Shown here: piece by piece, positions 1-55,699 of the stretch
How the letters are laid out: each line of letters opens with the position of its first letter
Position numbering within the stretch: position 1 is the stretch's first letter
Assembly (NCBI GenBank): GCA_963705305.1
Contig: OY970067.1
Coordinates: forward strand, 2,560,001 to 2,624,000
Direction: 5' to 3'
Source: an uncultured Methylomirabilota bacterium
Lineage (GTDB): Bacteria > Methylomirabilota > Methylomirabilia > Methylomirabilales > 2-02-FULL-66-22
Length of the DNA: 64,000 nt
The notes under the pieces: model-generated
What the model saw: the letters and a program-made list of their open reading frames with translations, nothing else
Database searches by the model: none
What the model was told of the DNA's origin: nothing
Made by a program: the position numbers and the translations under genes

Positions 1-589
1 CCACCTGGCCGTTGCGCAACCGCCGGAGCAGGAGGTAGCCCAGGGCCGCCAGGATGAGGAGATCGGACACGTAGAGGTCGGGCGTGCTGATCTGGAAGAA
101 GGCGTCAACGCTCGCCAGGTGGGTGACGAGGGACGGGATCGGCTCCAGGAAGAACCGGAGGTGACGGAGGAAGATGACCAGGAAGGTCCAGTGGAAGACA
201 AGGGCGGCCAGCCACAAGAGCTTGTCCTCGCCGTAGGTCAGCCGGACGCCCTCCCGGAGCTGCACCCGGATATTGCGGAAGAGCGATCGGAACAGCCCGA
301 TCTCCAAAGCCATGCGGGCAGCCACGCCGGCGCCGGAATACGGGCTCTCCAGCCAGCCGGCCTTGATCCAGGGAAGGGATTTCTGCTGTCCACAGGTGGT
401 GGGGATGCGAAAGGGGACCGGCGCGCGGGACCAGACCAGGACCCGGTAGGTCAGGCCCGCCAGCAGGGTCAGGAGGGCCGCGTACGGCACGACGATCCCG
501 AAGAGGACACGCAGCCCCTCCGTCTGCCCGCTCAGAAAGGCCAGGGCCGCCAGAAGGACTACCGCGACAAGTGCCGTCAGTGCGCGCAC
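1..589 (-). CDS. dsrM: DsrM, cytochrome b subunit of DsrMKJOP (3' end runs off the window)
   Basis: Not in the ORF track; manual translation from GTG at 589 gives MRALTALVAVVLL...WSRAPVPFRIPTTCGQQKSLPWIK..., the conserved DsrM motif. Directly downstream of dsrT. Confidence 0.9.
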   Translation of the reverse strand, partial: MRALTALVAVVLLAALAFLSGQTEGLRVLFGIVVPYAALLTLLAGLTYRVLVWSRAPVPFRIPTTCGQQKSLPWIKAGWLESPYSGAGVAARMALEIGLFRSLFRNIRVQLREGVRLTYGEDKLLWLAALVFHWTFLVIFLRHLRFFLEPIPSLVTHLASVDAFFQISTPDLYVSDLLILAALGYLLLRRLRNGQV

Positions 590-595
590 CGCCGC

Positions 596-1171
596 TCACC
601 CCGCCCGGCGCCGCTCGTCCCCAGTGGGACGGGCGGCGCCGGGGGCCGTGGCGACCGGCGGCCGCTCGTCTGAATTGATCCGCGCCAGGCCGGACAAGCT
701 CCGCCTGGCCTCGTTCACCCTGAGCATATAGATGCGCTCCCGGTACCGGACGAAGCAATCGAAGGCCAGCAGCATGAGGTCGTCGATCCGCGCCTCCAGG
801 ATCGTCAGGGCCTGCTCCCCGGGCGACGGCTGGCCGGCGACCGTCTCCCGGATGACTTTCTTCAGCAGCGGGAGGAAGGCCAGGGCCTGGCCGGGGGTGA
901 AATCCTGCACGGCCCTGATTTGGACGATCGGGTCCAGCACTCCGGCCAGCCGGGCCGGGTCCATCCCTGCGACGAGTTCATCGAAGAGGGCGGGGAGGCC
1001 GTGCCGCAGGGCGTCCCCGACGGGATTTCGGAAGGGATCCTTTTCGCGCCCGAAGAAATGCGCCGTCTGCGGGGCATACGTGTCCAGGGTTCGCGCGAGC
1101 CAGGCCCCGACGATCCGGCTCCGGCTCGTCGCGAACATCTCCGCCAGCGAAGGCACGTCACCCCCGTTCAT
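596..1171 (-). CDS. dsrT: DsrT (RsbRD N-terminal-domain protein)
   Basis: Motifs KDPFRNPVG and IVQIRAVQDFTPGQAL; typical position between dsrC and dsrM. Confidence 0.85.
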   Translation of the reverse strand: MNGGDVPSLAEMFATSRSRIVGAWLARTLDTYAPQTAHFFGREKDPFRNPVGDALRHGLPALFDELVAGMDPARLAGVLDPIVQIRAVQDFTPGQALAFLPLLKKVIRETVAGQPSPGEQALTILEARIDDLMLLAFDCFVRYRERIYMLRVNEARRSLSGLARINSDERPPVATAPGAARPTGDERRRAG

Positions 1172-1183
1172 GGACCTGCCTTG

Positions 1184-1504
1184 CTAGACGCAGCCGGTCG
1201 GCTTGGGAAGACCGGCTACCTTGCAGGCCCCCTTCGCCGGCCCCGAGGGGAACAGCGCGTAGATCTCTTTCAGGTCGAACCCGGTTTCCTTGCACACCTT
1301 GCGGACCATGGGGGCAATCTTGAACTTCGTGTAATAGTCGCGGAGGTACTTGACCACCTTCCAGTGGGCCTCCGTCATCTCCTGGATGCCCTCTTGATCC
1401 CTGGCCAGCTCGGCCGCCAGGCTTTCATCCCACACATCTGGGTCCTGGATGAACCCATCCTCGTCCACCTCTATTTGCCTGCCGGCATAGACGACGGTTG
1501 CCAT
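1184..1504 (-). CDS. dsrC: DsrC sulfur carrier
   Basis: 106 aa; C-terminal ACKVAGLPKPTGCV has both conserved cysteines, so it is a true DsrC rather than TusE. Confidence 0.96.
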   Translation of the reverse strand: MATVVYAGRQIEVDEDGFIQDPDVWDESLAAELARDQEGIQEMTEAHWKVVKYLRDYYTKFKIAPMVRKVCKETGFDLKEIYALFPSGPAKGACKVAGLPKPTGCV

Positions 1505-1579
1505 AGTCTATCCTCTCCTCTCCTGCGCGTGATCGTCCTGCCGCCGGCCTCGCAGGCCGCGGCGTTGGTTGGGGAAGGC

Positions 1580-3076
1580 TCACACGGGAGCCGACATTCC
1601 TAATCCCTTTCCGGCCAGGGCCGTCTCCACGGGCCTGGCGGCCTTTGTCTGCAGCCCTCCGGCGGCCGCCAGGCGCCTGGCCGCGTGCTGGCGGGCTTGC
1701 CGGATCAATGCGGGTGCCCACTCGGGGGTGCCGGCGGCATGAAAATGCACGAAGGAGGCCAGGACATTTCGATGGGTCAGGCCGTCGTGCGCGCCATCGA
1801 ATCCGGTGCCCCGCTCCACCCGGAAGGCCAAGCGCAGATCCTCCGACCGGGCGGACCGGACATACGAGTAGCGGAACTCGTGCCCCCGAAGCTTCGTCCC
1901 GCAGGGGAAGAAGGGGTTGGGTCCGCTCACCTCGATCACCGCATAGCCGTGGCCCCAGGGCCGCCTGCCGAGCTCGAAGGTGACGGGGAACACGCCCACC
2001 ATGGGATAGGCGGTCCCGTTGATCTGTATCGCCTCGCCGAGATAGATCAGCCCGCCGCACTCGGCGATTACGGGCAGCCCCGCCCCGATCTCCCGACGCA
2101 GCGCATCCCGGAAGCTGCGGTTGGCGGCCAGGGCGGCCGCGTGCGTTTCCGGATAGCCGCCGCCGATATAGAGGGCGTCGACGGGGGGCAGATCGGGGTC
2201 GCCGAGCGCGTTGACCTCCACGATCTCTGCGCCCAGCCGTTGCAGCTGTTCCAGGTTCTCGGGATAGTAAAACGTAAAGGCGCTGTCCCGGACCACGCCG
2301 ATCCGTACGCCGCCCGCCACCGCCTGCGACTCGCTCTCCCCTGACCAGTGGAGCGGGGGGGCGGACGCCGCCAGCCGGAGGATCCCGTCCAGGTCGACGT
2401 GCTCCCCCACCACCCGACGGGCGATGCGGATGGGCTCCGCCACCGAGGGGTGCTCCGCCGGGGTGAGCAGGCCCAGATGCCGCTCGGGGAATTCCAGGTC
2501 GGCAAGCCGTGGCAGGCTGCCCAGGATGGGCAAACCGCAGACTTGTTCCACGGCGGATCGGATCGCCCGCTCCTGGCGGGGCGTGGCCACGCGGTTCAGC
2601 AGGACCCCGGCCAGACGCAGCTCCGGATCCATGTGCTGGCAGCCCAGCACCATGGCGGCCACGGTCCGAGTCGTCTTGGTGCAATCGACGATCAGGACGG
2701 CCGGCGCCTGGAGAAGCTTGGCCAGCTCCGCCGAGCTGGCCGCCGCCTCGGCCCCCACCCCATCGAACAGGCCATGATTGGCCTCGAGGAGGGTCACGTC
2801 GGCCAGGTGCCCATGCTCACCGACCGAGCGGCGAATGTGCTCCTCGCTCATCAGGAACGTATCCAGGTTGCGGCAGGGGCGCCCGCCCGCCCGCGTGTGC
2901 CAGGCGGCGTCGATGTAGTCCGGCCCTTTCTTGAACGGCGCGACGGCGAGCCCCCGCGCCTCCCAGGCGCCGATCAGCCCCAGGGCGATCAGGGTCTTGC
3001 CGGTGCTCCCGCGAAGGCCGCAGAGCATCACCCGGGGGCACGCCGCACTCATCATGCCTTCTGGGTCTCCCATCAT
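1580..3076 (-). CDS. dsrN: DsrN siroheme amidase (cobyrinate a,c-diamide synthase family)
   Basis: GKT, FKKGPDYID, ERHLGL, FTFYY, AECGGL motifs; inside the dsr operon. The start may be at 3055. Confidence 0.9.
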   Translation of the reverse strand: MMGDPEGMMSAACPRVMLCGLRGSTGKTLIALGLIGAWEARGLAVAPFKKGPDYIDAAWHTRAGGRPCRNLDTFLMSEEHIRRSVGEHGHLADVTLLEANHGLFDGVGAEAAASSAELAKLLQAPAVLIVDCTKTTRTVAAMVLGCQHMDPELRLAGVLLNRVATPRQERAIRSAVEQVCGLPILGSLPRLADLEFPERHLGLLTPAEHPSVAEPIRIARRVVGEHVDLDGILRLAASAPPLHWSGESESQAVAGGVRIGVVRDSAFTFYYPENLEQLQRLGAEIVEVNALGDPDLPPVDALYIGGGYPETHAAALAANRSFRDALRREIGAGLPVIAECGGLIYLGEAIQINGTAYPMVGVFPVTFELGRRPWGHGYAVIEVSGPNPFFPCGTKLRGHEFRYSYVRSARSEDLRLAFRVERGTGFDGAHDGLTHRNVLASFVHFHAAGTPEWAPALIRQARQHAARRLAAAGGLQTKAARPVETALAGKGLGMSAPV

Positions 3077-3092
3077 CCCTCTCGCGAATCCC

Positions 3093-3350
3093 TCAATCGC
3101 CCGAGCCCTTGTCCTGCTGCGAGGGAAGCTCGACGTAGCTCCCGTCGTAGAAGGTGTAGACGCAGCGGCCCGCGTCCGTCAGATGACGCAGCGCCTCCTT
3201 GCAGGCGTCCCGGTTGCAGCGGTCTGCGCCGAAGCGCTCGATCATCGCCTTGGTCAGCTCCGTCGGGCGCAACCGGCGGCTCCCGGTGCTTTCCTTGACC
3301 ATCTGATACATTGCTTCAGCCAGCTCGTCGACGGTCACTGGGTCGGCCAT
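3093..3350 (-). CDS. dsrD: DsrD
   Basis: 85-aa ORF (MADPVTVDELAEAMY...CKEALRHLTDAGRCVYTFYDGSYVELP) right after dsrB, with a GGAGG RBS. Confidence 0.82.
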   Translation of the reverse strand: MADPVTVDELAEAMYQMVKESTGSRRLRPTELTKAMIERFGADRCNRDACKEALRHLTDAGRCVYTFYDGSYVELPSQQDKGSGD

Positions 3351-3360
3351 GGAAGCCTCC

Positions 3361-4443
3361 TCACCCCTTGAAGTACAGGGAGCGCTGAAAACTCGTCTCG
3401 GCGTGGCGGTAGTCGTCGATGTGCTGCTTGGTGAACGGGATGCCCGTCTTCTGGAAGAAGCGGGGCCAGCCGATGCGCTCGATCCATTCGCCGATCCGCT
3501 CGTACTTCCGGGCGTCCGCCGCCCAGACATCCACGATGTTCTTCACGGCGGCCACGACCTCGGGCCAGCGCGGCGGATTGTTGGGCAGATAGGGCACGGC
3601 CAGTTTCGAGAACATGGGGGCATGCCGCGCGTGGCTGACCTTGCCCCCCACCCAGATGGAAACGCCGTCGTTCAGCGCGTTGTTGATGGGGAGCGCCGGA
3701 CACACCGTGTAGCAGTTTGCGCAGAACATGCACTTCTCTTCGAGGATCTCCACCGTCTCCTTGCCGTCGATCCGGGTGGGACGGATGGCCGCGGTCGGGC
3801 AGGAGGCGACCACGTTGGGAATCTCGCAGACCTTGGGGAGCCGCTCGTGATCGACCTTCGGCGGTCGACGGTGAACGCCCAGGATGGCGATGTCGGAGCA
3901 GTGGACGGCGCCGCACATGTTCAGGCAGCAGGCCAGCGCCAGGCGAATCTTGGCCGGCAGCGTGAGCGTCGTGAAGTGCTCGATCAGCTCGTCCATCACG
4001 GCCTTCACGATGCCGGAGGCGTCGGTGGCCGCGGTGTGGCAGTGGATCCAGCCCTGCGTGTGGACGATGCTGGAGATGCTGTTGCCCATCCCGCCCACCG
4101 GGAAGCCCTTCGTCTTGAGATCGGCAATCAGGGGCTCGATCCGGCCGGGATCCGTGAGGAGAAACTCGATGTTGTGCCGGCTGGTGAAGCGGACGTAGCC
4201 GCCGCTATACGTGTCGGCCAAGTCGCACAGCTCCCGGATCGTCTGGATGCTCAGAAGGCGGGGCGTCCCCGCCCGCACGGTGTACAGCTTGTCGCCCGAG
4301 GCTGCCACGTGCACCATGACGCCGGGCTTGAGGATCTCGTGGCACTGCCATTGTCCATAGTTCTTCTTGATGATGGGGGGCAGATACTTCTGATAATGCG
4401 GGGGCCCGATATCGGTCTTCCGCTGGACAGTGGTCTCGGCCAT
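3361..4443 (-). CDS. dsrB: Dissimilatory sulfite reductase beta subunit
   Basis: [52 protein letters not shown]. Confidence 0.98.
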
Positions 4444-4500
4444 GGGTGGATTCTCCCCTGTGAGGGCGCCGCGTCCGCCGGGGGGGGCGCCGGATCATGC

Positions 4501-5706
4501 CTAGGCCTGGGTCGGCTCCTCTTCCAAATATTCCTCGTAGAAGACGTACGGATTCTCGCGCGGATGGGCCACCATCTCGGGCTGGGGCTCGACCCCGATG
4601 GCCTCCAGGAAGTTCCCCAGGCCGACCCGCTGGATGAACTCGCCCACGCGCTCGCGGTTCTTGCCCTCCTCGGACCACACATCGATGATCTTGTCCGCCA
4701 GTTTCTTGATCTCGGTGTAGGGGGGCTCCATCTTCATGAAGGGCACCAGGACGGACGAGAGCATGGCGCCCTGCAGGATCGGCGCCTTGGCGCCGATGAG
4801 CAGGGTGGCGCCGCGCTCCGGACCCGGGCGCAGGGCCTTGGGCATCACGTTGATGCAGTGCATACACTTGACACACCACTCGTTGTCGATGAACAGTTCT
4901 TTGCCGTCCCAGGCCATGCACTTGCTGGGGCACTGCGCGATCACCTCGGCCTGGATGTCGATCCCGTCGGTGGCGTACTGCCGGACGGCTGCCGGATCGA
5001 TCTGGATGGGCCCGCGCCAAGTGCCGATGATGCTCATGTCGGCGCGGGCGATGGCCGCCACGCAGTCGTTGGCGCAGCCGGAGGCCTTGAACTTGAACTT
5101 GTAGGGGAACGAGGGGCGGTGCATCGAGTCCTGGTAGTACATGGTCAGGTCATAGATGCATTGCAGCGTGTCGAAGCAGGCCCATTCGCAGCGAGCCGGC
5201 CCCACACAGCAGCTGGGGGTTCGGACCACCGAGCCGGACCCTCCCAGGTCGAACCCGTTCTGGGTGAGATCGCTGAATGTCGGCTCCAGCTCTTCCGTGC
5301 GCGTCCCCAGCAGGATGATGTCGCCCGTGGACCCGTGCATATTGGTGAGGCCGGAGCCGTGCCGCTCCCACAGGTCGCAGACGGCGCGCAACGCCTCCGT
5401 CGTGTAAAACCAGGCGGCCGGATGGTTCACCCGCAGGGTGTGGAAGTGCGCCACGTGGGGAAACTGCTCGGGGAGATCGCAGTACCGCCCGATGACCCCG
5501 CCGCCATATCCGCGAACCCCGACGATCCCGCCGTGCTTCCAATGCCCGATCTTCTGAGCGTAGGAGAGTTCCAGCAGGCCGAGGACGTCGCGGGACATGG
5601 CGTTGCTTTCGGCGGCGCGCTTGATCTCCTTGACGAAACTGGGCCAGGGCCCCGATTCCAACTGATCCAGCTGTGGTGTCTTGGGCAGCGACGTGTCATC
5701 GGCCAT
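4501..5706 (-). CDS. dsrA: Dissimilatory sulfite reductase alpha subunit
   Basis: [59 protein letters not shown]. Confidence 0.98.
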
Positions 5707-5745
5707 GAGTCAGCACCTCCCTCGTTGGTGACCCGAACCTGGCGT

Positions 5746-7398
5746 TCAGCGCATCTCGATGTACCCGCAGGGACACTGCTCCGCGCACTTCTTGCAACCC
5801 GTGCAGAACTCCAGCTTGATCCGGTAGGGCTGGCCGGCCTCCGCCGGCTTTTGGATGGCCCGCTCCTGGCAGTACTGCCAGCAGGTATCGCACTCGAAGC
5901 ACATGCCGCAGCTCAGGCAGCGCTTGGCCTCGGCCAGCGCCTGGTCCTCGGCGAGGCCGATGGTCACCTCGCGGTCCGGATCGGCGAACCGCTCCTCCAC
6001 CGGGATCGTCGCCGCGACGGACCGCGGCGCCTTGGGGTAGAATTCCGGTCGCAGCGTCTCCTTGGTGGCCACGGGCGGGGGTGCCGGCTCGGGCTCTTGG
6101 ATGCCGCGGAGCCGCCGATGAATGGTCTCGGCGACGCGACGACCCCGGAAGACGGCCGTGCTCACGATCCCCAGATCCAGGTCGTCCGGCGCGGCGAACG
6201 TGCCGGGGACGGCCGTCTCCCCGTGCGCGTCGGTGGAGACAGATCCTCCCTCGCCCCGTAGGGACTCCAGGCCGACCGTGTCCCGCTCGGCCTTGCCCGC
6301 CACGATGATCGTGCTGGCCGGCAGGAAGAGCTCTGCTTCGGCCCCCCGGGGCTGTCCCGCGTCGGCAACGCGTCGGCAGGTAAGGCCGGTTGCTCGCCCT
6401 GCTTCCATGCGAACGGCCGAAGGAACCGCCTGGCCCTGGATGGCGACCCCCTCGCGCTTGGCCTCTTCGATCTCCTGCTTGCCGGCGGGCATGTCCTCCG
6501 CCTTGCGGCGCGATACGATCGTGACGTGCGCCCCCAGGCGGCGTGCCACGCGGGCCGCATCCAGGGCCGTATCGCCCCCCCCGACCACCAGAACCTCTGT
6601 TCCCACCTCCAGGGGCTCGCCGCCGTTCATGCGGTGCAGGAGCTCGGCCGCGGACAGGACGTTGGGGGCGTCCCCGCCGGGCAGATCCAGGACGACCCCG
6701 CGGTGCGCCCGGATGCCGACGAAAATTGCGGCGTACTCCTGGCGGAGGGCATCCAGTGTGATGTCCTTGCCGAGGGCGCTGTTGCATTGAAAGGCCACCC
6801 CGAGGGTTTCCAGGCGGGCAATCTCTCCGTCCAGCACCGGGCGGGGCAGGCGGAAGGCTGGGATCCCGTACCGCAGCATGCCGCCGAGCTTGGGGAAGGC
6901 CTCGAACACCGTGACCGGATAGCCGCGCCGCGCCAACTGGTAGGCACAGGAGAGGCCTGCAGGTCCGGAACCGATGACCGCGATTCGCTCGGTCTGTCGT
7001 TCCTCGGTGATCGAGCGCAGGGGGAGCTGCCGCTGGAGGGCGTAGTCCCCGACGGCCCGTTCGAGGCAGTTGATCGCGACCGGCTCGTCGACCTGTAGGC
7101 GGCTGCATTGCAACTCGCACTGGTGAGGGCAGGCGCGGCCGCAGCTCGCCGGCAGCGGGTTCTTGTCGGCGAGGAGATAGAACGCCTCCTCCATCGCCTG
7201 GGAGAGAGATTTTCCGTGCTTCTCCGCCAGGGCCAGCGTCATGATGACCGAGCGAATGTCCTGATGGTTGGGGCAGGCCTTGGAGCAGGCCGGGGTCCTC
7301 TCGCTGAAGTACGGGCGCATGGGCGAACCGCCCCGGTCGCTTGGTGGCTGGCCTCCCCCGGATCCGAGTTTGCGCACCTTCTTGACGACAACGGCCAC
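5746..7398 (-). CDS. dsrL: DsrL iron-sulfur flavoprotein, NAD(P)H:acceptor oxidoreductase
   Basis: GTG start at 7398 with AAAGGAG RBS; N-terminal Fe-S cysteines, GSGPAG (FAD), GGGDTA (NAD(P)H), two C-terminal 4Fe-4S motifs; 550 aa; directly upstream of dsrA. Confidence 0.88.
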   Translation of the reverse strand: MAVVVKKVRKLGSGGGQPPSDRGGSPMRPYFSERTPACSKACPNHQDIRSVIMTLALAEKHGKSLSQAMEEAFYLLADKNPLPASCGRACPHQCELQCSRLQVDEPVAINCLERAVGDYALQRQLPLRSITEERQTERIAVIGSGPAGLSCAYQLARRGYPVTVFEAFPKLGGMLRYGIPAFRLPRPVLDGEIARLETLGVAFQCNSALGKDITLDALRQEYAAIFVGIRAHRGVVLDLPGGDAPNVLSAAELLHRMNGGEPLEVGTEVLVVGGGDTALDAARVARRLGAHVTIVSRRKAEDMPAGKQEIEEAKREGVAIQGQAVPSAVRMEAGRATGLTCRRVADAGQPRGAEAELFLPASTIIVAGKAERDTVGLESLRGEGGSVSTDAHGETAVPGTFAAPDDLDLGIVSTAVFRGRRVAETIHRRLRGIQEPEPAPPPVATKETLRPEFYPKAPRSVAATIPVEERFADPDREVTIGLAEDQALAEAKRCLSCGMCFECDTCWQYCQERAIQKPAEAGQPYRIKLEFCTGCKKCAEQCPCGYIEMR

Positions 7399-7478
7399 GC
7401 GTGGAGTCTCCTTTCCCCAGCTTTTCGCGTCCTTCCGTGGACGCGTAGAATACGGCTTTCCGCCATCAAGGATGGCAG

Positions 7479-7494
7479 GCAAGGCATTTGCCAG
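7479..7494 (-). promoter_or_regulatory. Sigma-54 (-24/-12) promoter of the dsr operon
   Basis: Minus strand CTGGCAAATGCCTTGC = GG-N10-GC with TGGCA/TTGC context, about 80 bp upstream of dsrL. Confidence 0.75.
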
Positions 7495-7558
7495 GTCCGC
7501 CGAGGGCTGCAAAAGCTTGCGAAATGGACCTTGGGGGAAAGAAGCACAGACGGGGCAC

Positions 7559-7605
7559 GTTACCGAAAGGTAACGGGCGAGGCTGGCACGTTACCTTCCG
7601 GTAAC
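7559..7605. promoter_or_regulatory. Twin palindromic upstream activator sites GTTACC-N4-GGTAAC
   Basis: GTTACCgaaaGGTAAC (7559-7574) and GTTACCttccGGTAAC (7590-7605), starts 31 bp apart. Confidence 0.75.
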
Positions 7606-7797
7606 ATGGACCGGCCAAGTAAGCCCGAGACGCTTCAACTTCTTCCACAGGGTCTTTCGGCTGATCCCTAGAATCTGTGCCGCCCGAGCCCGGTTCCCCT
7701 CGGTCAGTTGGAGCACAGAAACGATGTGCTCACGTTCTGCCTGTTCCCGCACCTTCTGGAGAGGCCGGCCCATTATCTCATGAACAACAGGCACCAC
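7591..7797 (-). CDS. Stand-alone Fis-type helix-turn-helix protein (HTH_8)
   Basis: [46 protein letters not shown] upstream of the GTG start. Confidence 0.75.
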
Positions 7798-8108
7798 CCG
7801 AACACTCCTACATTCATCCCAGAGAAGACGCTATGCGGCGAGCCCTCGCACATCAATACCGGGCAGCCCCCGGCACGCCCCCCGGTCCGTGCCTCGCAGG
7901 GACAGACAAACCCACCACCCTCGAGGCTGCCGCCTCGATGCCTCAAAATGTGGGCGGCGCACCTCCTATCCGATATGCCAGGAGCGGACAACCAAGATCC
8001 GCCAGGACCCGCCTGCCTCCTCCCTACGGGGGTTCCGGCCGGATCCCCGGGCTCGCTCCACGGCGCGAACTCGGGAATCCGGCCTGGGCGGTTATCGGAC
8101 CCGGCGGG

Positions 8109-8282
8109 CTAGCCGGGGAAGATGGCGGTGCCGATAATCACGAGCACCACCAAGAGCACCAACCCGAGAACCAGGCTCCACGTGACCAGCTTGCGTTCGA
8201 CCGGCAAGAATGGCTCGTAGGAGATTTTTGCCATCTCTTCCGCGAGCTTTTCTCCCGTCGGAGCGGCGTGTGGTTGCGCCAT
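8109..8282 (-). CDS. Small single-TM membrane protein, likely partner of the upstream transporter
   Basis: 57 aa MAQPHAAPTGEKLAEEMAKISYEPFLPVERKLVTWSLVLGLVLLVVLVII...; GGAGG RBS. Confidence 0.75.
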   Translation of the reverse strand: MAQPHAAPTGEKLAEEMAKISYEPFLPVERKLVTWSLVLGLVLLVVLVIIGTAIFPG

Positions 8283-8349
8283 GGTGTTCCCTCCTGTCGT
8301 TGCTGAGAACCGCTCACGCCCCCGATCGTGCAGGGACGCCCTTGTCACG

Positions 8350-9792
8350 TCAGACGGTCGGCGGCACGATCCCGTGGAAGAAGACCCACGAGATCACCAG
8401 CCCGATCCAGATGATGAACCCGAACAGGCACACCAGGTACACGAGCGCCAGCTTGCCGATGCCCTCCTCCCACAGCTTCTTGAAGTTCGAGACGAGCCCG
8501 ATGGTGAAGAAGGTCATGGCGAAGAAGAGCACGCGGAACACGTTGCTCTCTCCGGTCGCCAGCTTGGCCGCACCCAGGATGCTCGGCACATTGAGGACCA
8601 GAAAGAGCATCACCAGGAACGTCAGGGCGTACCCGATCACGAACTTGGGGAAGCGCTCCCAGATCTGCCCCGCCGAGACGGTCTCGCCCGGCTTCTTGTC
8701 GATGGCGTAGCACCAGATCAGGGCCAGCACGAAGGCCCAGACGCCGATGAAGATGTCGATGAAGATCTTGATCGTGGTAGCCGTCATCAGGATCCAGCCT
8801 TCCTTGTAGTTCACCCCTGACGCGGCCAGAGCCTTGGCCCGGATCAGGGCATCCACGATCGCCCCGCTGGCCACCGCGGCGCCGTCCGTCTTGACGGCCA
8901 GACCCATCCAGGCCCCTGCGACCATGGGCTGATGGTACAGGAACGTCTCTGCGATGAACGGCAGGAACAGCAGTTCGACCACCGCGAAGAGGACCACCAG
9001 CGACGAGACCATTACGGGAATCATCGGGCGGGACTTGACCGCCGCGCCGGTGGCGATGGCTGCCGAGACGCCGCAGATGGAGATGCCGGACGCCAGGGGG
9101 ACGGCCCATTCCCGACTGAACCCGAAGGCCTTGCGGGCGATGAGATACACCAGGGACCAGAAGATCAGGTAGGCGACGACGATGGCCGAGAACCCGAGAA
9201 ATATGATCGCCTTGGCGAGGCCGGTGGCGCCCGCGGCGCTGACGCCCAGGGACGCCCCCAGGATCACGATGGCGGTCTTGATGTACCACTCGGGTCGGGT
9301 GGCCTCCTTGAGGGCCGCCGTGATTCCGGGAAAGAAGTTGCTCAGGATCAGGCCCACCAGGAGGGCCACGACATATCCGGACTCACCGGTCAACCCCAGG
9401 GCCCAGGAGATGTGGAAGGCCTTGAGCTGGTTGGGGGTGGCCGCAATGTAGGCCCAGCTGCCGACCAGCCAGCACAGATAGCTGACCCAGAAGATGACCG
9501 TGAAGCCGAGGGCGAATTCCCCGAAGTTGAACTTCAGCGCCTTGGCCCCCACCCCCATGATGACCAGCATGAAGATGTAAGTGCACACCAGGGAAAGGAT
9601 CCCCGGCATCCCGGCGTAGTTCTTCGACAGCGGGGCTATGGACTTGGTGATATCGGTCCACGTGTTGGTGGCCACGCTCCAGCCGAGGAGATCCACCCCC
9701 GCAAGAACACCCAGGCCCACCAGGAAGACGAAGAGCCCAATCCACAAGGACCACCAGTCTTCGTTGTTTCGGATGAACTTTGTCCTCTCCAT
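8350..9792 (-). CDS. Putative sulfate exporter family transporter (YeiH/UPF0324)
   Basis: NEDWWSLWIG, EWYIKTAIVILGA, ASGISICGVSAAIAT, WERFPKFVIGY; many TM helices. Confidence 0.85.
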   Translation of the reverse strand: MERTKFIRNNEDWWSLWIGLFVFLVGLGVLAGVDLLGWSVATNTWTDITKSIAPLSKNYAGMPGILSLVCTYIFMLVIMGVGAKALKFNFGEFALGFTVIFWVSYLCWLVGSWAYIAATPNQLKAFHISWALGLTGESGYVVALLVGLILSNFFPGITAALKEATRPEWYIKTAIVILGASLGVSAAGATGLAKAIIFLGFSAIVVAYLIFWSLVYLIARKAFGFSREWAVPLASGISICGVSAAIATGAAVKSRPMIPVMVSSLVVLFAVVELLFLPFIAETFLYHQPMVAGAWMGLAVKTDGAAVASGAIVDALIRAKALAASGVNYKEGWILMTATTIKIFIDIFIGVWAFVLALIWCYAIDKKPGETVSAGQIWERFPKFVIGYALTFLVMLFLVLNVPSILGAAKLATGESNVFRVLFFAMTFFTIGLVSNFKKLWEEGIGKLALVYLVCLFGFIIWIGLVISWVFFHGIVPPTV

Positions 9793-9872
9793 TTTTCTAC
9801 CCCCCACTCGAGATGAACGAGTACGTCCGTTACGCAGAGGACCGCGCCCTTCCATTGTAAATGGAAAGAGGT

Positions 9873-9888
9873 AGCAAGGACCTTGCCG
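9873..9888 (-). promoter_or_regulatory. Sigma-54 promoter of the transporter operon
   Basis: Minus strand CGGCAAGGTCCTTGCT = GG-N10-GC. Confidence 0.7.
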
Positions 9889-9951
9889 GGCCGGAGAGCC
9901 GAGGAAAATTGTATGGAAATCGTATGTTGCGAAAAAAGGGGGAAGGCCCGG

Positions 9952-9999
9952 GTTACCGCTTTGAAACGTCAGCGGGGATCGGCGTTACCGATCGGTAAC
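9952..9999. promoter_or_regulatory. Twin upstream activator sites (GTTACC-N4-GGTAAC; one imperfect)
   Basis: GTTACCgcttTGAAAC (9952-9967) and GTTACCgatcGGTAAC (9984-9999), starts 32 bp apart. Confidence 0.72.
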
Positions 10000-10013
10000 G
10001 CCGGGAGGGTTCA

Positions 10014-11114
10014 TCACAAGCCGTACAGTTTGTAACAGGTGCGGCAGGGTTCGGGGGGTGCCGTTCCAGGCTCGGATGCATCCCCGGAGAGGGCCGAAAG
10101 CCCCAGGGCACGCGTCCTTGCCTCGGAGAGGCGCGCCGCGAACTGCTGCCGGAACTGCTGATAGGCGGGACTGCTCCAGATCGCCATCAGGTCCCGATCC
10201 TTGATGTTGCCGAACCGGACCCGGGGCACGCTGAGGGATCGGCCTCCGAAATACCGCGGGATCTCGCTCTGGCCGGCCAGCCCCATGTACGTGCAGGGCG
10301 AGACCCATCCGTCGCAGGATACAAAGAGGATATCCAGGGGGTCGGCCTCGCACATTGCCGCCTCGTCGGGCTCCAGCGGGTATGACCGGAATGCCAGACC
10401 GGCCCGCTCCGCCCTCCTGCCGGCGAGCTCCACGCTCTGCGAGAAGGCCTCGCAGAGCGGCGGCGGACAATTGAAAGCCTTCAGGGCATCCTGCTCGGGG
10501 GTCACAACGTAATCGAGGTTGGTTGCGTACAGCTCGTCCGCGCCGAGGGATGCGGCTAACTCCACCGCCTGGGGCAATTCTTCCATGTTGGTTCTGGTCA
10601 TGAGATAGGAGAGTTCCACCTTGGGCGCGTCCCGCCCGTGGTCGCTGCGCAGGGCCAGGAGGCGGCGGATGTTCTCGAGGATCAGCGGGAGATCAGAGCC
10701 CACCCGAAGGCTCTCGTGCGTGCGCGGCGTGGCGCCGGCGATGGAGACCGCCAAGAGATCCAAGCGCAGGTCCACAAGTCGCCTCGCCGCGTCCGGGGTC
10801 AGCCGCATGCCGTTCGTGGTGAAGCCCACCCGGCACCCGGCGTCCTTGGCCACGGCGATCATGTCGAAGAGGCGGGGGTGGAGCAGCGGCTCGCCCCACC
10901 CCTGCAGGTGGACGTGCTTCACCCGGTCGAAGGCCCGAGCGATGCGCTGGAAAGCCTCCCACGGCAGATCCATCTCCCGCCACCGGTCCGCCAGGCCGAC
11001 CCGCGGGCACATCACGCAGCGGAGGTTGCAGCGGGAAGTTACCTCGACCTGGAAGGCCTTAAGGGTCCGCCCGCCCGTGCGATGCCGGAACCACTCGACG
11101 ACGCGCTTGACCAT
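10014..11114 (-). CDS. Radical SAM protein with SPASM/twitch-like C-terminus
   Basis: CNLRCVMC, LQGWGEPLLHP, GFTTNG, C-terminal VSPC and CRTC. Probable start MVKRVV at 11114. Confidence 0.85.
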   Translation of the reverse strand: MVKRVVEWFRHRTGGRTLKAFQVEVTSRCNLRCVMCPRVGLADRWREMDLPWEAFQRIARAFDRVKHVHLQGWGEPLLHPRLFDMIAVAKDAGCRVGFTTNGMRLTPDAARRLVDLRLDLLAVSIAGATPRTHESLRVGSDLPLILENIRRLLALRSDHGRDAPKVELSYLMTRTNMEELPQAVELAASLGADELYATNLDYVVTPEQDALKAFNCPPPLCEAFSQSVELAGRRAERAGLAFRSYPLEPDEAAMCEADPLDILFVSCDGWVSPCTYMGLAGQSEIPRYFGGRSLSVPRVRFGNIKDRDLMAIWSSPAYQQFRQQFAARLSEARTRALGLSALSGDASEPGTAPPEPCRTCYKLYGL

Positions 11115-11244
11115 CCGCCACTCGTCCCTCGGCCCGCCATGCGCCCATGAAACGTGCACAGGATCGAGGGGTCTGCCGTTCGCCTTCCTGGACGTCCACG
11201 CGCGGGGGAGAAATGCTCGATCCCCTCCCGCCCCCATAGGCAAT

Positions 11245-12255
11245 TCAAGTGGCGTGCCAGTCCGGCGGGGTCTGGCGGAACCACGCGGCGGTCTCGGCCA
11301 CGCCGGTGGGGAAATCCACCGGGGGGACATATCCCAGCTCGTTCCGGATCCGGCTGATGTCCGGCTCGCTGTCCCGATACAGGGCGCACAGGCGCATCAG
11401 CGCCGCGCGCGATGGTCGAAAGTGGCCTTCGGAAGGCTCTGCCTCGGGGACGGCCATCAGGGCCAGGAGCGGCGCCACCAAGGCCTTGGGAATGCGGAGC
11501 CAGGGAACCGGCAAGTTCAGCGCCGTGGCCAGGGCCGTCAGGAACTTCCGGCAGACGACGCCGAACCCGTCGGCGACATTGTAGATCCGCCCCGTTGCCT
11601 CGGGGCGCGTCGCGGCCAGCCAGAGGGCGTACGCGACGTTGCGCGCATAGCTCAGATCCAGGGTGTTCCGGCCGTTGCCCACCATGAAGAAAAGGGGGGA
11701 TGCCAGGCGATGAATGAGGTGCGGGAGCAGCACGCGCTCGCCCGGTCCCCATCCCATGCCCGGCCGCAGGATGACCGTGGGCAGTCCGGTCTCGCGGGCG
11801 CGCTCCTCGACCAGCTCTTCGGCCTTGACCTTGCTCTCTTCGTAGGGGACGACGAACGCCGCGGCGCGCGGGGCGTCCTCGGTGAGGCCGCGGTGGTCAC
11901 GCTCGACCCCGTACACGACCGTGCTGCTCACGTACACGAATCGCTCGACGTGAGCCGCCAGACAGGCCTCGAGCACGGTGTGGGTCCCGCCGACATTGAT
12001 GTCCAGATGTCTCTCGCGGGGGGCGAACGGGGCCACGAGACCGGCCAGGTGAAAGACGGTGGCGGCGCCGGCACAGGCCTCGCGGACTGCCGTCAGATCG
12101 CGGATATCGCCCACCCGGTGTTCCACATCCGGCAGCGACACGCCGGGCGATGTGCCCGGCCGGAGGAGGACCCGGACCTCCATCCCGCGCTCGCGCAGCA
12201 TCTGCACCAGGTGCGATCCCAGAAACCCCGTTCCTCCCGTCACAAGCGCCACCAT
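11245..12255 (-). CDS. NAD-dependent epimerase/dehydratase (extended SDR)
   Basis: VTGGTGFLG, FHLAG, YEESK catalytic YxxxK. Confidence 0.9.
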   Translation of the reverse strand: MVALVTGGTGFLGSHLVQMLRERGMEVRVLLRPGTSPGVSLPDVEHRVGDIRDLTAVREACAGAATVFHLAGLVAPFAPRERHLDINVGGTHTVLEACLAAHVERFVYVSSTVVYGVERDHRGLTEDAPRAAAFVVPYEESKVKAEELVEERARETGLPTVILRPGMGWGPGERVLLPHLIHRLASPLFFMVGNGRNTLDLSYARNVAYALWLAATRPEATGRIYNVADGFGVVCRKFLTALATALNLPVPWLRIPKALVAPLLALMAVPEAEPSEGHFRPSRAALMRLCALYRDSEPDISRIRNELGYVPPVDFPTGVAETAAWFRQTPPDWHAT

Positions 12256-12321
12256 GGTCCACCTCGTGGCTTTCAGCGGCCGGCCGCCGGCAGCTAAACC
12301 TCGAACCGAAAAAACTGCTTA

Positions 12322-12469
12322 ACCGCCATGACGCCAAGGCATCGCGGTCTATAGAGTCCGGCGGTTTTGATTCGAGGGTAGTGGAACGCCCCCCAGGGGG
12401 CGTGGTGCGGTTCCAATCCTTTTGGCATGTTGCCTATTCCAGCCAGGGCATTCTTGGCGCCTTGGCGGT
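12322..12469. repeat. Intergenic element bounded by imperfect 17-bp inverted repeats (REP/MITE-like)
   Basis: ACCGCCATGACGCCAAG (12322-12338) versus CTTGGCGCCTTGGCGGT (12453-12469), 15/17 complementary. Confidence 0.5.
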
Positions 12470-12496
12470 GAGAGTTCTTCGGAATGGGGCTAAACG

Positions 12497-13840
12497 CTAG
12501 TCAAGGCCGAGCTGCTTCATCTTCTTCCAGAGTGTCTTCCGGCTGATGCCCAGGATCTCTGCCGCCTTCTGTCGCTGCCCGCCGACGCTGTGGAGGACCT
12601 CTTGAAGGTAGCGGCGCTCCGTCTCCCGGACGGCGCCTATCAGGGGCTGGGCTGCGAGGCTCCCCAGCTCCGCGGACACCGGAGCGGCCTCCGGGAAGAT
12701 ATCCTCTGCCGTGAGCACCGGGTTCTTGGTCAGCGTGACGGCGCGCTGGATGCTGGCCTCCAGCTCCCGGACGTTTCCGGGCCAGGCATAGGCGAGCAAC
12801 TGCCGGGAGGCCTCGGGAGCGATGCCATGGATGGTCTTGCCCAGCGGCCGCGCGTACTTTTCGAGAAAATGCTCTGCCAGGGGCAGGACGTCGTCTTTCC
12901 GTTCCCGCAAAGGCGGGAGCAGGATGGGGATCACCTTGAGGCGATAGAACAGATCTTCCCGCAGGCGCCCCGCCAGCACCTCGTCCTCCAGCCGCTTCCG
13001 CGTAGCCGAGAGCAGCCGGACATCCACCTTGATCGTCTGACTCCCGCCGATCCGCTCGAACTCCTTCTCCTGCAGGACCCGCAGGAGCTTGGCCTGGACG
13101 GCGGGCCCGAGATCCGCGACCTCGTCCAGGAACAGGGTGCCCCGATGGGCCAGCTCGAACCGCCCCTTCCGCTCCCGAATGGCGCCGGTGAAAGCGCCCT
13201 TCTCGTGCCCCAAGAGCTCCGCCTCGAGGAGTGTCTCCGGGATGGCGGCGCACGCCACCGACACCAGCGGGTAGGCCCGGCGCATACTGTGCTGATGGAT
13301 GGCCCGGGCGACGAGCTCTTTCCCCGTTCCCGTCTCGCCCTGGATGAGGACGGTGGCGTCACTCTTGGCCACGGTGGCGATGAGCTCGCAGATCCGCGCC
13401 ATCGCCTCGCTGACGTAGATGAGGTCGGCGAACCGCTGAACCTGTCCGGCCCCCGTCCGCTCGCGCGGAGCCCGGCCGGATTGGACCAGCAGGCCCCGCA
13501 GCAGCGTGAGCAGCTCCTCCGAAGGAAACGGCTTCAGCAGGTAATCCGTGGCTCCGGCTTTCATCGCCGCCACGGCCGACTGGATCGTGCCGAAGGCCGT
13601 CATCATAATGGCAAGGCCCTGGGGGTTCGCCGCCTTGAAGGTCTGCAGCAGCGTCAGGCCGTCCACCTTGGGGAGCTTGAGGTCAAAGAGCGCCACGTCG
13701 AAGCTCCGGGCCTGGATGAGGCGAAGGCCCTCCGCCCCATCGGAGCCGCTGGTGACCTCGAACCCTTCCTCGCCAAGGTCGTTCGCCAGTGTCAACCGGA
13801 GGATCGGCTCGTCCTCTACCAGCAGGATGGTCGGTCGCAT
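12497..13840 (-). CDS. Sigma-54-dependent response regulator (NtrC/AtoC family)
   Basis: Receiver domain, GETGTGKE, GAFTGA, WPGNVREL, C-terminal Fis HTH. Confidence 0.95.
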   Translation of the reverse strand: MRPTILLVEDEPILRLTLANDLGEEGFEVTSGSDGAEGLRLIQARSFDVALFDLKLPKVDGLTLLQTFKAANPQGLAIMMTAFGTIQSAVAAMKAGATDYLLKPFPSEELLTLLRGLLVQSGRAPRERTGAGQVQRFADLIYVSEAMARICELIATVAKSDATVLIQGETGTGKELVARAIHQHSMRRAYPLVSVACAAIPETLLEAELLGHEKGAFTGAIRERKGRFELAHRGTLFLDEVADLGPAVQAKLLRVLQEKEFERIGGSQTIKVDVRLLSATRKRLEDEVLAGRLREDLFYRLKVIPILLPPLRERKDDVLPLAEHFLEKYARPLGKTIHGIAPEASRQLLAYAWPGNVRELEASIQRAVTLTKNPVLTAEDIFPEAAPVSAELGSLAAQPLIGAVRETERRYLQEVLHSVGGQRQKAAEILGISRKTLWKKMKQLGLD

Positions 13841-13847
13841 GGCTGCC

Positions 13848-15303
13848 TCAGTCTCCGCTGGCGGGGAGGGCCACGGTCACGGTGGTCCCCCTGCCGACTT
13901 CACTGTCCACGGCAATGGAGCCCCCGTGAGCCCTGACGATTCCGTAGGTTACGGAGAGGCCCAGCCCCGTTCCCTTCCCGACCTCCTTGGTGGTGAAGAA
14001 CGGATCGAAGATGCGCGGAAGGTTGTCGGGAGGGATGCCGATGCCGGTGTCGGCGACGCGGACCTCGACGAACGGTTTGATCGCCCTCCGGCAGAGGCTG
14101 CCGTCGATTGTGAGCGTTCCCCCCTCGGGCATGGCCTCGATGGCGTTCATCAGGATGTTGAGGAAGACCTGCTCGAGCTGGTGCGGATCCGCCAAAAGAC
14201 CGGGAGCCGCCCTCTCCATGGCCAGGGAGAAGGTGATCCGCCTGGCCGTGAGCTCGTGCTCGAGGAGGGTCAGGCAGCGCTGGAGCAGGGGGGTCAATTC
14301 CACGGGGAGAAGCCGCGGCTTGGCCTCCCGGGCGAAATTCAGGAGCTGCCCGACGGTCCGGCCGATCCGGTCCAATCCCTCCCGCAGCATCTCCAGGTAT
14401 TGCACCCGCTGCGCCTCGTCCCGCGCCCCTTTCAGGAGCGTCCGCACGCAGTTCTGCATCCCGGCGATGGGGTTGTTGATCTCATGGGCGATGCCCGCGG
14501 CCATCGTGCCCAGGGACGCCAGGCCCTGGGCCCGCCGGATCTCGTCCGCATGGCGGTCTTCCAGCTGTCGTCGGGCCTCCGCCAATCGAGCCACCATGGC
14601 GTTGAGGCTCTTGGCCAGAACGTCCCAGCTCGTCCCGGCTGTCGTCGGGAACGCGGGCGGTGAGATCGCCGGCCTCCACCAGGCTCATCGTCCGTGACAG
14701 GGTATGAATCCGCTGCCCGGCCACCAGGGAGAAGAACAGCCAGATCATTCCGCCGGCGGCGATGAGTCCCGCGACGCCGATGACGATCATGTACATCCAG
14801 TGGGGATCGGCCCACAAATCCGCCGAGGGAACATACACCTGCGCATTCAAGTAGCCGAGGACCGCGGTCTTGCGCTGGTGGCAGCGGGCGCAGCTAGGAC
14901 GATTCGGGATGGGGAGGAACACTCCCACGGTTCGCTCCCGGAGGTTCCAGACCGGCTCCGAGAAGGTTGCATCCTTGGGCAATTCTTCCGGCGAAAGAAC
15001 CTGCCCCTCCTCTTCCGGCTTGCTCGCGCGGAGGATGGTGCCGTCGGCGGCCACGATCCGAATGCCGGCCAGGACCGGCTGGCGCCCGATCCGGGTGAGA
15101 ATTGCCTGGACGACGTGCGTCTCTCCGCGCTCCATCGCCCGGGCCAGCGCCCGGACTGATACCTCGGCAATCAGATCGGCCTCTTGCCTGGCCATCAGCA
15201 TCAGACGATTCACCTGGATGCTCGAGGCGAGGATGGTGTAGACGAGGATGACCAGCAGGAGGACGGCCCCGATGCCGAGGATCATCTTCATCCGCAGCGA
15301 CAT
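13848..15303 (-). CDS. Sensor histidine kinase with periplasmic CxxCH domain and HAMP; +1 frameshift near 14619, probably a sequence error
   Basis: Split across ORFs 14482..15303 and 13848..14597; removing one base restores [22 protein letters not shown]-box, N and G boxes; CARCH between two TM helices. Confidence 0.85.
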
Positions 15304-15357
15304 GCATCAATCCTCATGCAGGCCTGCCGCCTCGCCGGTCACGGGGTCGGCAGGCGA

Positions 15358-15930
15358 CTAGCGAGCGGATGGTTCCCGGGATTCAATGTGCTCCTTGATG
15401 GCCTGCAGCCATGTCTCGAGCTCTCGCTGCATCCGGAATCGCAGGGAATCCGCGCGCTCGCGTGCGATGACCTCCCACGTCCCCTGGGCCATCTCCGGGA
15501 CGACGAAATGGAGGAGCTTGATGAACCTCCAGGCGCGCTCTGCGCGGGGGGTGGCGGGGAGGCCCTCCAGCATCTCTGGGCTCGCCTCGCACTGCTCGGA
15601 CTGCTTGAGGCGACTGCCGGTCGGCGTCTGCTCCACTTCCAGCCGGACCGTGAAGAGGATGGGAAGCTCGGCTCGGCTCTCGATCAGTCGATCCGGCTCG
15701 AAATGAGTGCACCGCATGCAGTACTCGAAGATCCGGGTTCCGTGCTGCATCCGGTAGAAGGTCACGCTGCCGACGCCGAGGGGTCCCGGCGTCTCCCGTT
15801 CGATCCGGATGACCTGGACCGAGCGGTTGAGACGTGCCTTGGCCTCGGCGTCGCTGATCAGTGCAAACACCCTGGCGGGGGGCGCCCCGATATCCACGCA
15901 TGCGGCGATCCGGATCGTGATGGCGTCCAT
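15358..15930 (-). CDS. SRPBCC (polyketide cyclase/START-like) family protein
   Basis: VDIGAPPARVFALISD...FEPDRLIE pattern. Confidence 0.7.
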   Translation of the reverse strand: MDAITIRIAACVDIGAPPARVFALISDAEAKARLNRSVQVIRIERETPGPLGVGSVTFYRMQHGTRIFEYCMRCTHFEPDRLIESRAELPILFTVRLEVEQTPTGSRLKQSEQCEASPEMLEGLPATPRAERAWRFIKLLHFVVPEMAQGTWEVIARERADSLRFRMQRELETWLQAIKEHIESREPSAR

Positions 15931-20768: not shown

Positions 20769-22133
20769 TCAGTCCTCGCCCAGCTTGATATGGTACCGGC
20801 GGATCTTGCGGTAGAGGGTCCGGCGGTCGATCCCCAGGATGGAGGCGGCGCGGATCTGATGCCCCTTGGTGCGCCGGAGAATCATGGCGATGTAATCCCT
20901 CTCCAGATCCTCCAGCGTGGCCTCTTTGGCCAGGGCGCGCTCCAGCGGATCGGTGCCGCCGGCCAGGTGGGGGGGGAGGTCGCCCGGCTGGATGGCGGGG
21001 TCGCGTCCCAGGGTCACCGCCCGCTCGATGATATTCTCCAGCTCGCGGACGTTGCCGGGCCAGCCGTAGCTCAGGAGGATGGCCATGGCCTCCTTGGAGA
21101 TCTCCCGGATATTGGGGTTGGATTCCTGCGAGAACTTCTGCATGAAGTGATTGGCCAGCAGCGGGATGTCCTCCTGCCGATCCTTGAGATCCGGCAGGGT
21201 GATGGGCACGACATTCAGCCGGTAGTACAGATCCTCCCGGAAGCTCCCCTCCTCCACGGCCTTCTTCAGGTCCCGGTTGGTGGCGGCGATGACCCGGACG
21301 TCGATCTTGATGGTCCGGGTCCCCCCCACCCGCTCGATCTCCCGCTCCTGGAGGGCGCGGAGGATCTTCGCCTGGAGGTCCAGGCGCATGGAGCCCACCT
21401 CGTCCAGGAACAGGCTCCCCCCGGTGGCGAGCTCGAACTTCCCCACCTTGGTGGCGATGGCCCCGGTGAAGGCCCCCTTCTCATGGCCGAACAGCTCCGA
21501 CTCCAGGAGCTCGGAGGGGATGGCGGCGCAGTTGACGGCGACGAAGGCCTTGGAAACCCGCGGGCTGTTGTAGTGGACGGCCTTGGCCACCAGCTCCTTT
21601 CCCGTCCCGCTCTTGCCGTAGACCATCACGGTGCTGCGGCTGCCCGCCACCTGCTCGATCAGGCCGAACACCTCCTGCATGGCGCGGCTCTTCCCGATCA
21701 GGTTCTCGAAATGGTAGCGCGTGCGGAGCTCCTGCCGCAGGCTGCTCACCTCGTGCCGCAGCCGCCGCTCCTCCAGGGCCTTGTCGATGGTCAGGAGCAT
21801 CTCGTCGATCTTGAAGGGCTTGTTGATGTAGTCGTATGCTCCTTCCTTCACGGCCTGCACCGCCTGGTCGATGGACCCGAAGGCCGTCATGATGATGACA
21901 ACGGTGTCCGGATTCAGCTCCTTGATGGCCTTCAGCGCGTCCATGCCGCTCATCCCCGGCATGCGGACGTCCGTCACGACCAGATCCATGGGCTCTTTCT
22001 CGAGCACGGCCAGGGCTTCCGCCCCGTCCCCGCAGGCCGCGACCTGATAGCCGCTCTTGTCCAGGACCTTGGCCAGCAGGCCCCGCATCTGCTCTTCGTC
22101 GTCCACAACCAGGATGCGCGCTTTCGTCGTCAT
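20769..22133 (-). CDS. Sigma-54-dependent response regulator (NtrC/AtoC family)
   Basis: Start MTTKARILVVDDEE; GKSGTGKE, GAFTGA, WPGNVREL, HTH GIDRRTLYRK. Confidence 0.95.
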   Translation of the reverse strand: MTTKARILVVDDEEQMRGLLAKVLDKSGYQVAACGDGAEALAVLEKEPMDLVVTDVRMPGMSGMDALKAIKELNPDTVVIIMTAFGSIDQAVQAVKEGAYDYINKPFKIDEMLLTIDKALEERRLRHEVSSLRQELRTRYHFENLIGKSRAMQEVFGLIEQVAGSRSTVMVYGKSGTGKELVAKAVHYNSPRVSKAFVAVNCAAIPSELLESELFGHEKGAFTGAIATKVGKFELATGGSLFLDEVGSMRLDLQAKILRALQEREIERVGGTRTIKIDVRVIAATNRDLKKAVEEGSFREDLYYRLNVVPITLPDLKDRQEDIPLLANHFMQKFSQESNPNIREISKEAMAILLSYGWPGNVRELENIIERAVTLGRDPAIQPGDLPPHLAGGTDPLERALAKEATLEDLERDYIAMILRRTKGHQIRAASILGIDRRTLYRKIRRYHIKLGED

Positions 22134-55696: not shown

Positions 55697-55699
55697 CCC

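Follow-up and report, generated by a model that had tools for sequence, protein, structure and literature searches.

Sigma-54 promoters with twin activator sites probably control the dsr operon and an exporter operon in an uncultured Methylomirabilota bacterium

The stretch of DNA analysed here (the window) comprises 64,000 nucleotides of contig OY970067.1 from an uncultured Methylomirabilota bacterium (positions 2,560,001 to 2,624,000; coordinates below are those of the window) and contains a dsr operon for dissimilatory sulfite reduction, beginning with dsrL, and the operon of a putative sulfate exporter. Computational analysis supports, with good confidence, the view that the regions in front of both operons are sigma-54 promoters with twin upstream activator sites, and that they belong to a real, lineage-limited anaerobic-respiration switch including dsr; the claim extends no further than one Methylomirabilales genus plus a few metagenome-assembled genomes (MAGs) of other labels. 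In the proposed mechanism, a kinase with a periplasmic heme-c Cache domain (13848-15303) would phosphorylate the activator encoded at 12497-13840, whose dimers would occupy two tandem sites (GTTAC-N6-GTAAC core) lying on one helix face of each promoter, assemble into an AAA+ ring and reach RNA polymerase-sigma-54 through a DNA loop, probably helped by integration host factor (IHF). Activation would turn on the exporter operon and dsrL-A-B-D-N-C-T-MKJOP, and the inducibility of dsr is thus suggested by the way in which sigma-54 promoters work. The kinase, activator and operator would constitute a portable anaerobic-respiration switch, connected here to dsr and in other lineages to ArrA-, Ttr-, Phs- and FdhN-like operons. 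The promoter elements are as follows.

7478..7494, minus strand: sigma-54 -24/-12 box of the dsrL operon, CTGGCAAATGCCTTGCC, with GG at 7492-7491 and GC at 7480-7479
7510..7522, minus strand: weak IHF-like element between enhancer and promoter, TCGCAAGCTTTTG
7559..7574, no strand: proximal enhancer palindrome of the dsrL promoter, a perfect GTTACC-N4-GGTAAC
7590..7605, no strand: distal enhancer palindrome of the dsrL promoter, a perfect GTTACC-N4-GGTAAC, including the stop codon of a mini-HTH gene
9873..9889, minus strand: sigma-54 box of the exporter operon, CCGGCAAGGTCCTTGCT, with GG at 9887-9886 and GC at 9875-9874
9952..9967, no strand: proximal enhancer site of the exporter promoter, GTTACCGCTTTGAAAC, with 2 mismatches
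9984..9999, no strand: distal enhancer palindrome of the exporter promoter, a perfect GTTACC-N4-GGTAAC

The genes of the region and both boxes lie on the minus strand, which agrees with the twin promoters of near-identical layout on one strand given in the preliminary description. The site spacing of 31-32 bp given there also holds (31 bp at the dsrL promoter, 32 bp at the exporter promoter). However, the distance between proximal site and GG, put at about 65-67 bp, was measured as 66 bp and 64 bp, respectively, and the exporter pair does not consist of two perfect sites; its proximal member is degenerate in relatives as well. Both boxes have the form GGCA-N6-TTGC, with a TGGCA/TTGC context on the coding strand. 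The dsrL transcript is predicted to start near 7467, ~69 nt 5' of the GTG at 7398, and the exporter transcript near 9862. The element at 7510..7522 is named for its likeness to the IHF consensus, and four HU/IHF genes are present in the genome. The pattern CAA(G/C)-N3-TT, picked post hoc, occurs in 16 of 60 enhancer-box spacers and in 1.1% of shuffled spacers.

The palindrome is rare. Matches with at most two mismatches number 4 in the window, against a mean of 0.42 in shuffled sequences; as many were seen in none of 100 shuffles. The genome, a single 5.65-Mb contig with 66% GC, contains 3 perfect sites, where 0.013 would be expected from hexamer frequencies, no site with one mismatch and 53 with two. 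Only two close pairs of sites exist genome-wide, both at this locus, and the same two are recovered by a matrix built without this genome. The bare GG-N10-GC pattern has 133,742 genomic copies and is hence uninformative, and GGCA-N6-TTGC has 199 (~4e-4 per 25-bp slot).

Of 20 genus-mates, the 8 with a dsrL orthologue are the same 8 that carry a perfect site (0 of the other 12), and in all of them the pair and the sigma-54 box stand 5' of dsrL, so that the scan of relatives proposed earlier finds the arrangement in 9/9 dsr-carrying genomes of the genus. Canonical dsrA together with dsrL and putative dsrD is found in 9 of 21 genomes of the genus (window 1-7398; G002, G006, G007, G008, G016, G017, G019, G020). 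In a sample of 251 genomes of the phylum, the perfect site occurs in 13, among which are all 9 with canonical dsrA, each with pair and box before dsrL. Five further genomes of the phylum have a divergent dsrA below the cut-off; three of these are without the site, and in two it lies on other contigs, 5' of a molybdoenzyme operon. In G255, the exporter promoter is present, yet the dsr contig has no site.

In 61 distinct promoters with a pair and a box, the spacing between sites is 30-33 bp (18-45 bp allowed), and the gap between site and box is 63-67 bp in 35 promoters, 73-77 bp in 21, 86-87 bp in 4 and 54 bp in one (42-121 bp allowed). These three clusters, which hold 60 of the 61 promoters, are one helical turn apart (best period 10.5 bp, R 0.73). 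The loci are kin and the matrix partly derives from them, but the search had no built-in preference for a 10-bp comb. The genes behind such promoters are prominently dsrL (22), PF03601 exporters (18) and TauE-family genes. Additional twin-site promoters 5' of TauE/SafE-like genes were seen at L061 (G019) and L197 (G020), and the L061 locus has AprA-like and QmoA-like frames too, a call made by eye. The sigma-54/enhancer architecture proposed in the preliminary description for dsrL and the exporter is supported because it is conserved in all dsr carriers of the genus and helically phased, rpoN is present in the genome (TIGR02395 above cut-off), no sigma-70-like site was found across 7300-15600, and the locus encodes an activator with an intact GAFTGA motif. 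The putative regulatory proteins are encoded by three genes.

12497..13840, minus strand: NtrC-type enhancer-binding response regulator with receiver, AAA+ (with GAFTGA) and HTH_8 domains, the probable cognate activator
13848..15303, minus strand: sensor histidine kinase with periplasmic heme-c Cache domain (CxxCH), HAMP, HisKA and HATPase
7591..7797, minus strand: mini-HTH, a stand-alone 68-aa Fis-type helix-turn-helix (HTH) gene (PF02954, E 1.6e-15), with AGGAG 7 nt before its GTG

The preliminary description left two candidates for the activator, 12497..13840 and 20769..22133, and the data point to the former. Among 29 AAA+ activator-like open reading frames of the genome, it alone has the recognition helix SRKTLWKK, which is otherwise shared just with the mini-HTH. 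Its orthologues are 69-81% identical, form a supported clade (8 rows in the tree) and adjoin the sites: some stand in a cluster like that of the window, others immediately 5' of twin sites (L055, L065, L073, L080, L081, L116, L196). Because of the shared helix and the linkage to the sites, 12497-13840 is the probable cognate activator. The product of 20769-22133 was rejected for this role, as its helix (DRRTLYRK) differs and no linked orthologue exists; no match above 53% identity was found in related loci.

In the sensor, CxxCH and one Met are invariant in 18 of 18 kinase sequences. The domain resembles GSU0935/GSU0582 (profile match to 3B42 at E 8e-4), and its model, with a predicted local distance difference test (pLDDT) score of 80, gives a Foldseek hit at rank 2 with E 7e-5; the single-sequence fold of the kinase is poor (pLDDT 61), and PF21563 matches weakly and in only 5 of the 18 members. 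Heme sensors of this class are named sCache_heme in a 2026 preprint, the available text of which describes nitric oxide (NO) sensor behaviour for one membrane-linked member (PMC12889525). The sensor shares with them (GSU0935/GSU0582, Tll0287/DUF3365 family) the Cache-like fold, the invariant CxxCH and the order of transmembrane segment, sensor, transmembrane segment, HAMP and kinase, but differs in the invariant Met and in having no Cys at the conserved distal position. The available part of PMC12889525 describes no coupling of sCache_heme to a dsr regulon under sigma-54. A kinase sensor orthologue (E<1e-40) is encoded in 14 of the 251 phylum genomes, 11 of which have a perfect site; G004 and G018 combine it with degenerate pairs and a box 5' of formate dehydrogenase-N. 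In the assembly the kinase frame is split by an extra base at 14619, which is likely an assembly error: the frame is single in 3 of 3 relatives aligned, and the base is missing from one short-read contig of depth 4.8. The kinase is accompanied by genes for a PF10604 protein and a hemerythrin. The hemerythrin-domain gene (16536-17045, minus strand), which stands 5' of the kinase and has linked counterparts of 71% identity in L150 and L151, may be a pointer to O2/NO sensing. As for the signal, sulfur species, NO and plain (heme) redox state are all candidates, because the targets are mostly sulfur-linked while related sites precede nrfHA and hcp.

The mini-HTH gene, absent from the preliminary description like the heme-c sensor, encodes an HTH_8 domain alone and ends within the distal palindrome. 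Its recognition helix, ISRKTLWKK, is identical to that of the activator. Across 16 copies, the nonsynonymous proportion is below the synonymous one (pN<pS) in 120 of 120 pairs and dN/dS is 0.19 (0.09 in the helix region), similar to the 0.17 of the activator's own HTH. In all 16 copies, 59-63 bp separate the helix from the distal site. The mini-HTHs, from several lineages, form a clade apart from the activator HTHs (100/100), in an alignment of 46 columns only. Their N-terminus is unconserved, and two copies stop earlier. Short homologues fall into 127 clusters of 37-119 aa. In the phylum sample, the mini-HTH (E<1e-28) is found in 12 genomes, the 13 with a perfect site minus one (G062); none was found in 301 Terriglobia-class genomes, among the 18 candidates that were scored in each. 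Scanning metagenomes at the protein level gave at least 49 loci; 24 of those listed have a stand-alone mini-HTH, and the other 25 are full-length activators or fragments. Among these 24, twin sites are present at 17, also with a good box at 14, and dsrL is next at 18.

It is proposed that the mini-HTH is a duplicate of the activator's DNA-binding domain lacking the ATPase and that it would bind the same sites. Because it has the same helix and no ATPase, it would most plausibly occupy the enhancer and damp or threshold activation; that it acts as a competitor we regard as about evenly balanced. Its gene lies 3' of either the activator gene or the exporter operon that the activator would drive, and a feedback loop would thereby be closed. 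Fis is a global nucleoid protein, and the mini-HTH is presumably akin to it and to isolated NtrC C-terminal domains, as a stand-alone HTH_8 from the DNA-binding domain of an enhancer-binding protein. It differs from Fis in keeping the exact helix of its partner, in its 1-2 copies per genome and in being encoded on its own putative site. Duplications of the mini-HTH with its twin site were observed (L023:12160-12368 and 16781-16983, in G020; L140, L141), one copy lacking a box and the other following a transposase-like frame, which looks like an insertion element beside the promoter. Seven loci (L144, L146, L148, L169, L132, L133, L134) represent a sub-lineage with mini-HTH and dsrL, at most one site and no clear sigma-54 box; a TGnTAnnnT element is common to four of them, at a distance of 52 bp from the site, and a switch to a sigma-70-type promoter has possibly taken place.

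The operator is not confined to dsr. A GTDB-wide search for the pattern returned 30 stretches on 24 contigs, of which five contigs (L056, L062, L064, L067, L078) with poor palindromes were set aside as chance. Both promoters stand before dsr in MAGs labelled Tectomicrobia and Chloroflexi, outside the sample of 251 genomes. Modules of kinase, activator and site were found 5' of ArrA-like (L065, L080), TtrBA-like (L081), PhsA-like (L055) and FdhN (L073) genes, the Arr, Ttr and Phs matches being below family cut-offs. In Desulfobacterota, the phylum of L057, the twin pattern is present in 3 of 401 genomes, before nrfHA, hcp and a multiheme cytochrome, and at dsr genes in none, and generality to classical sulfate reducers was rejected. 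Related palindromes were noted 5' of nrfHA (L057, L170), of an hcp-family gene (L188) and of a multiheme cytochrome (L190); the activator's helix is also present in a PAS-type activator at L170, which falls outside the activator clade.

Several observations weigh against the proposed switch. G062 has one orphan perfect site, and G008 (76% complete) has sites and no kinase match. The kinase of the window is frameshifted, and one low-depth contig is the only argument for an assembly error; the box at 7478 can be read as GGCA-N6-TTGC on the plus strand too, although relatives keep the minus reading only. The mini-HTH has no fixed start codon, with 44-56 codons preceding the helix. Seven of the 24 mini-HTH loci listed lack a twin site or clear sigma-54 box, though dsrL follows; six of these keep one site and L134 none, and 3 further loci have twin sites with a poor box. 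Finally, the relatives compared are kin, and the matrices applied to them derive partly from them.

Alternatively, the palindromes may chiefly serve the mini-HTH as its operator, with this protein in the part of a Fis-like repressor or architectural factor; activation of the sigma-54 promoter would then come from a different activator or from another place. The near-constant position of the helix relative to the distal site would fit this view, as would the loci that have lost the sigma-54 box but still have the mini-HTH and one site. However, no mini-HTH adjoins 27 of the 61 promoters (exporter, epimerase, fdh), which do have twin sites and a box; in G004 and G018, where activator and sites are present, no mini-HTH match exceeds the activator's own HTH; and the phasing to the box suits enhancer looping. 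This explanation is very unlikely. It is scarcely credible that the mini-HTH is a functionless relic, the 3' end of an activator gene copied with its downstream promoter, or that 20769-22133 is the cognate activator. The homology to the activator HTH, the unconserved N-terminus and the two shortened copies are what a relic would show, but the purifying pattern in every pair and the separate clade across several lineages oppose it, and the second variant meets the differing helix described above.

The preliminary description itself saw in the motif an operator of its own that defines a dsr regulon; taken further, this would be a dsr-specific regulon induced by sulfite. In this genome, the pair indeed occurs only at the dsr and exporter promoters, targets across loci are dominated by dsrL, PF03601 exporters and TauE-family genes, and ttr and phs also concern sulfur oxyanions, so that a sulfur signal is plausible. 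Specificity to dsr is nevertheless contradicted already at the sequence level: the same site with orthologous kinase and activator precedes ArrA-, FdhN-, TtrBA- and PhsA-like operons, in some cases in genomes with no dsrA match (G253, G254, G053, G004, G018), related sites precede nrfHA and hcp, the motif falls inside the published AioR consensus, and the sensor class is reported, in the available text of PMC12889525, as NO sensors. We give this version little credence. The switch with a wider range of targets is therefore preferred, and a bolder form of it, which we regard as possible and rather doubtful, is a portable, self-damping sigma-54 cassette of heme-c kinase, activator, twin operator and an HTH-only competitor encoded on that operator, a cassette that has moved between phyla and been placed before various anaerobic respiratory chains, by which dsr would respond to a gas or redox signal such as NO and would not be a housekeeping function.

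Among described systems, AioXSR/ArxXSR offers the closest design in the available texts (PMC5908839, PMC6011840, PMC5335332): a two-component NtrC/AtoC-type activator, an RpoN promoter and a respiratory oxidoreductase as the target. The AioR consensus is given there as GTT-N10-AAC (PMC5335332); 35 of 42 sites fit it, and 10 of 42, including 7559 and 7590, fit the refined AioR motif. The AioR helix SRTTLWEK is similar to SRKTLWKK. However, the inner bases are AC/GT here and not CG/CG, the sensor is a heme-c Cache kinase and not AioX plus AioS, and identity between the activator and an AioR-like protein encoded 5' of an AioB-like gene (L166) is only 31%, with the L166 site scoring -15 on the matrix; an AioR-like row is absent from the activator tree, and non-orthology relies on this pairwise identity only. 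No TIGR02693 (arsenite oxidase) match at 1e-30 was obtained in the genome, and twin sites with a mini-HTH are not mentioned for AioXSR/ArxXSR in the available parts of the literature. It is suggested that the switch works like an XSR system without being a member of this group.

The sigma-54 regulons of Desulfovibrio vulgaris (DVU0539/0946, DVU2956, DVU0621/NrfR) are likewise small and have palindromic sites, at transport operons and nrfHA (available parts of PMC4641369 and PMC3333781). The GTTACC palindrome is in none of the electrophoretic mobility shift substrates of Table S6 in PMC3333781, as far as this table was accessible; string matches in the available supplements of both papers are PhoB, DVU1949, DVU0744 and DVU0539/0946 sites, with no activator site matching. 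The main text of the D. vulgaris regulome paper contains "dsr" and "sulfite" 0 times. No description of the motif was found in a literature search whose reach excluded figure logos, RegPrecise and subscription papers, none of sigma-54 control of dsr in titles or abstract openings, and for an HTH-only competitor the papers listed were all unrelated.

The control of dsr genes is poorly understood. The repressor Rex is predicted to act on dsrABD in Desulfovibrio, but according to the available text of PMC4045070 these genes were not induced in a rex mutant, so that Rex control of them is not visible. Many of the recently discovered dsr carriers are considered facultative. The locus would supply a complete dsr operon with its sensor, activator and operator and with a probable modulator, and all parts can be rebuilt in E. 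coli without culture of the host. The arrangement is a possible metagenome marker of facultative, activator-gated sulfite respirers, and the mini-HTH, if its proposed role is true, would be a simple form of enhancer-level control. The genes served by the two promoters, and those between activator and exporter, are as follows.

1..5706, minus strand: dsrA, dsrB, putative dsrD, dsrN, dsrC, a dsrT-like gene and the start of dsrM; dsrKJOP lie beyond the window
5746..7398, minus strand: dsrL, first gene of the operon, starting with GTG at 7398, assigned by flavoprotein/Fe-S domains and synteny
8109..8282, minus strand: 57-aa membrane protein after the exporter, 56-86% conserved behind exporter orthologues
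8350..9792, minus strand: YeiH/putative sulfate exporter family protein (PF03601), starting with ATG at 9792
10014..12255, minus strand: NAD-dependent epimerase-family and radical SAM/SPASM genes between activator and exporter, in the same order in relatives

The products of dsrA, dsrB, dsrC and the CobB-like dsrN are above NCBIfam cut-offs, and the gaps from dsrL to dsrT are 10-75 bp; dsrMKJOP continues past the window edge. PF08679 does not match the putative DsrD, which is assigned by its similarity (0.97-0.98) to Atlas clusters called 'putative DsrD'. At the candidate position for the YRR motif, which marks DsrL-2 in the available text of PMC7596348, the DsrL encoded here reads SRR. Searches of the 98.9% complete genome for sat, aprA and dsrE were negative (no match to TIGR03012 or TIGR00339, and none above cut-off to TIGR02061), so that the gene content, dsrAB with dsrC, dsrMKJOP and an Atlas-based dsrD, corresponds to the reductive bacterial-type Dsr set, and because these three genes were not found the pathway would be sulfite rather than sulfate respiration. 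A 2023 review (PMC10591310) describes, in its available text, Methylomirabilota without dsrD and dsrL and with early-diverging DsrAB.

After dsrP, on the same strand (G000:C1:2547555-2555629), there follow a second DsrK-like gene, HmcE/TmcC-, HmcB- and HmcC-like genes, a split-Soret cytochrome c and thiC. Elsewhere in the window lie a SorA/SoxC-like molybdoprotein (27988-29607), an IS1380 transposase (36450-37901) and an NrfD/TtrB-like membrane oxidoreductase cluster (54515-59586).

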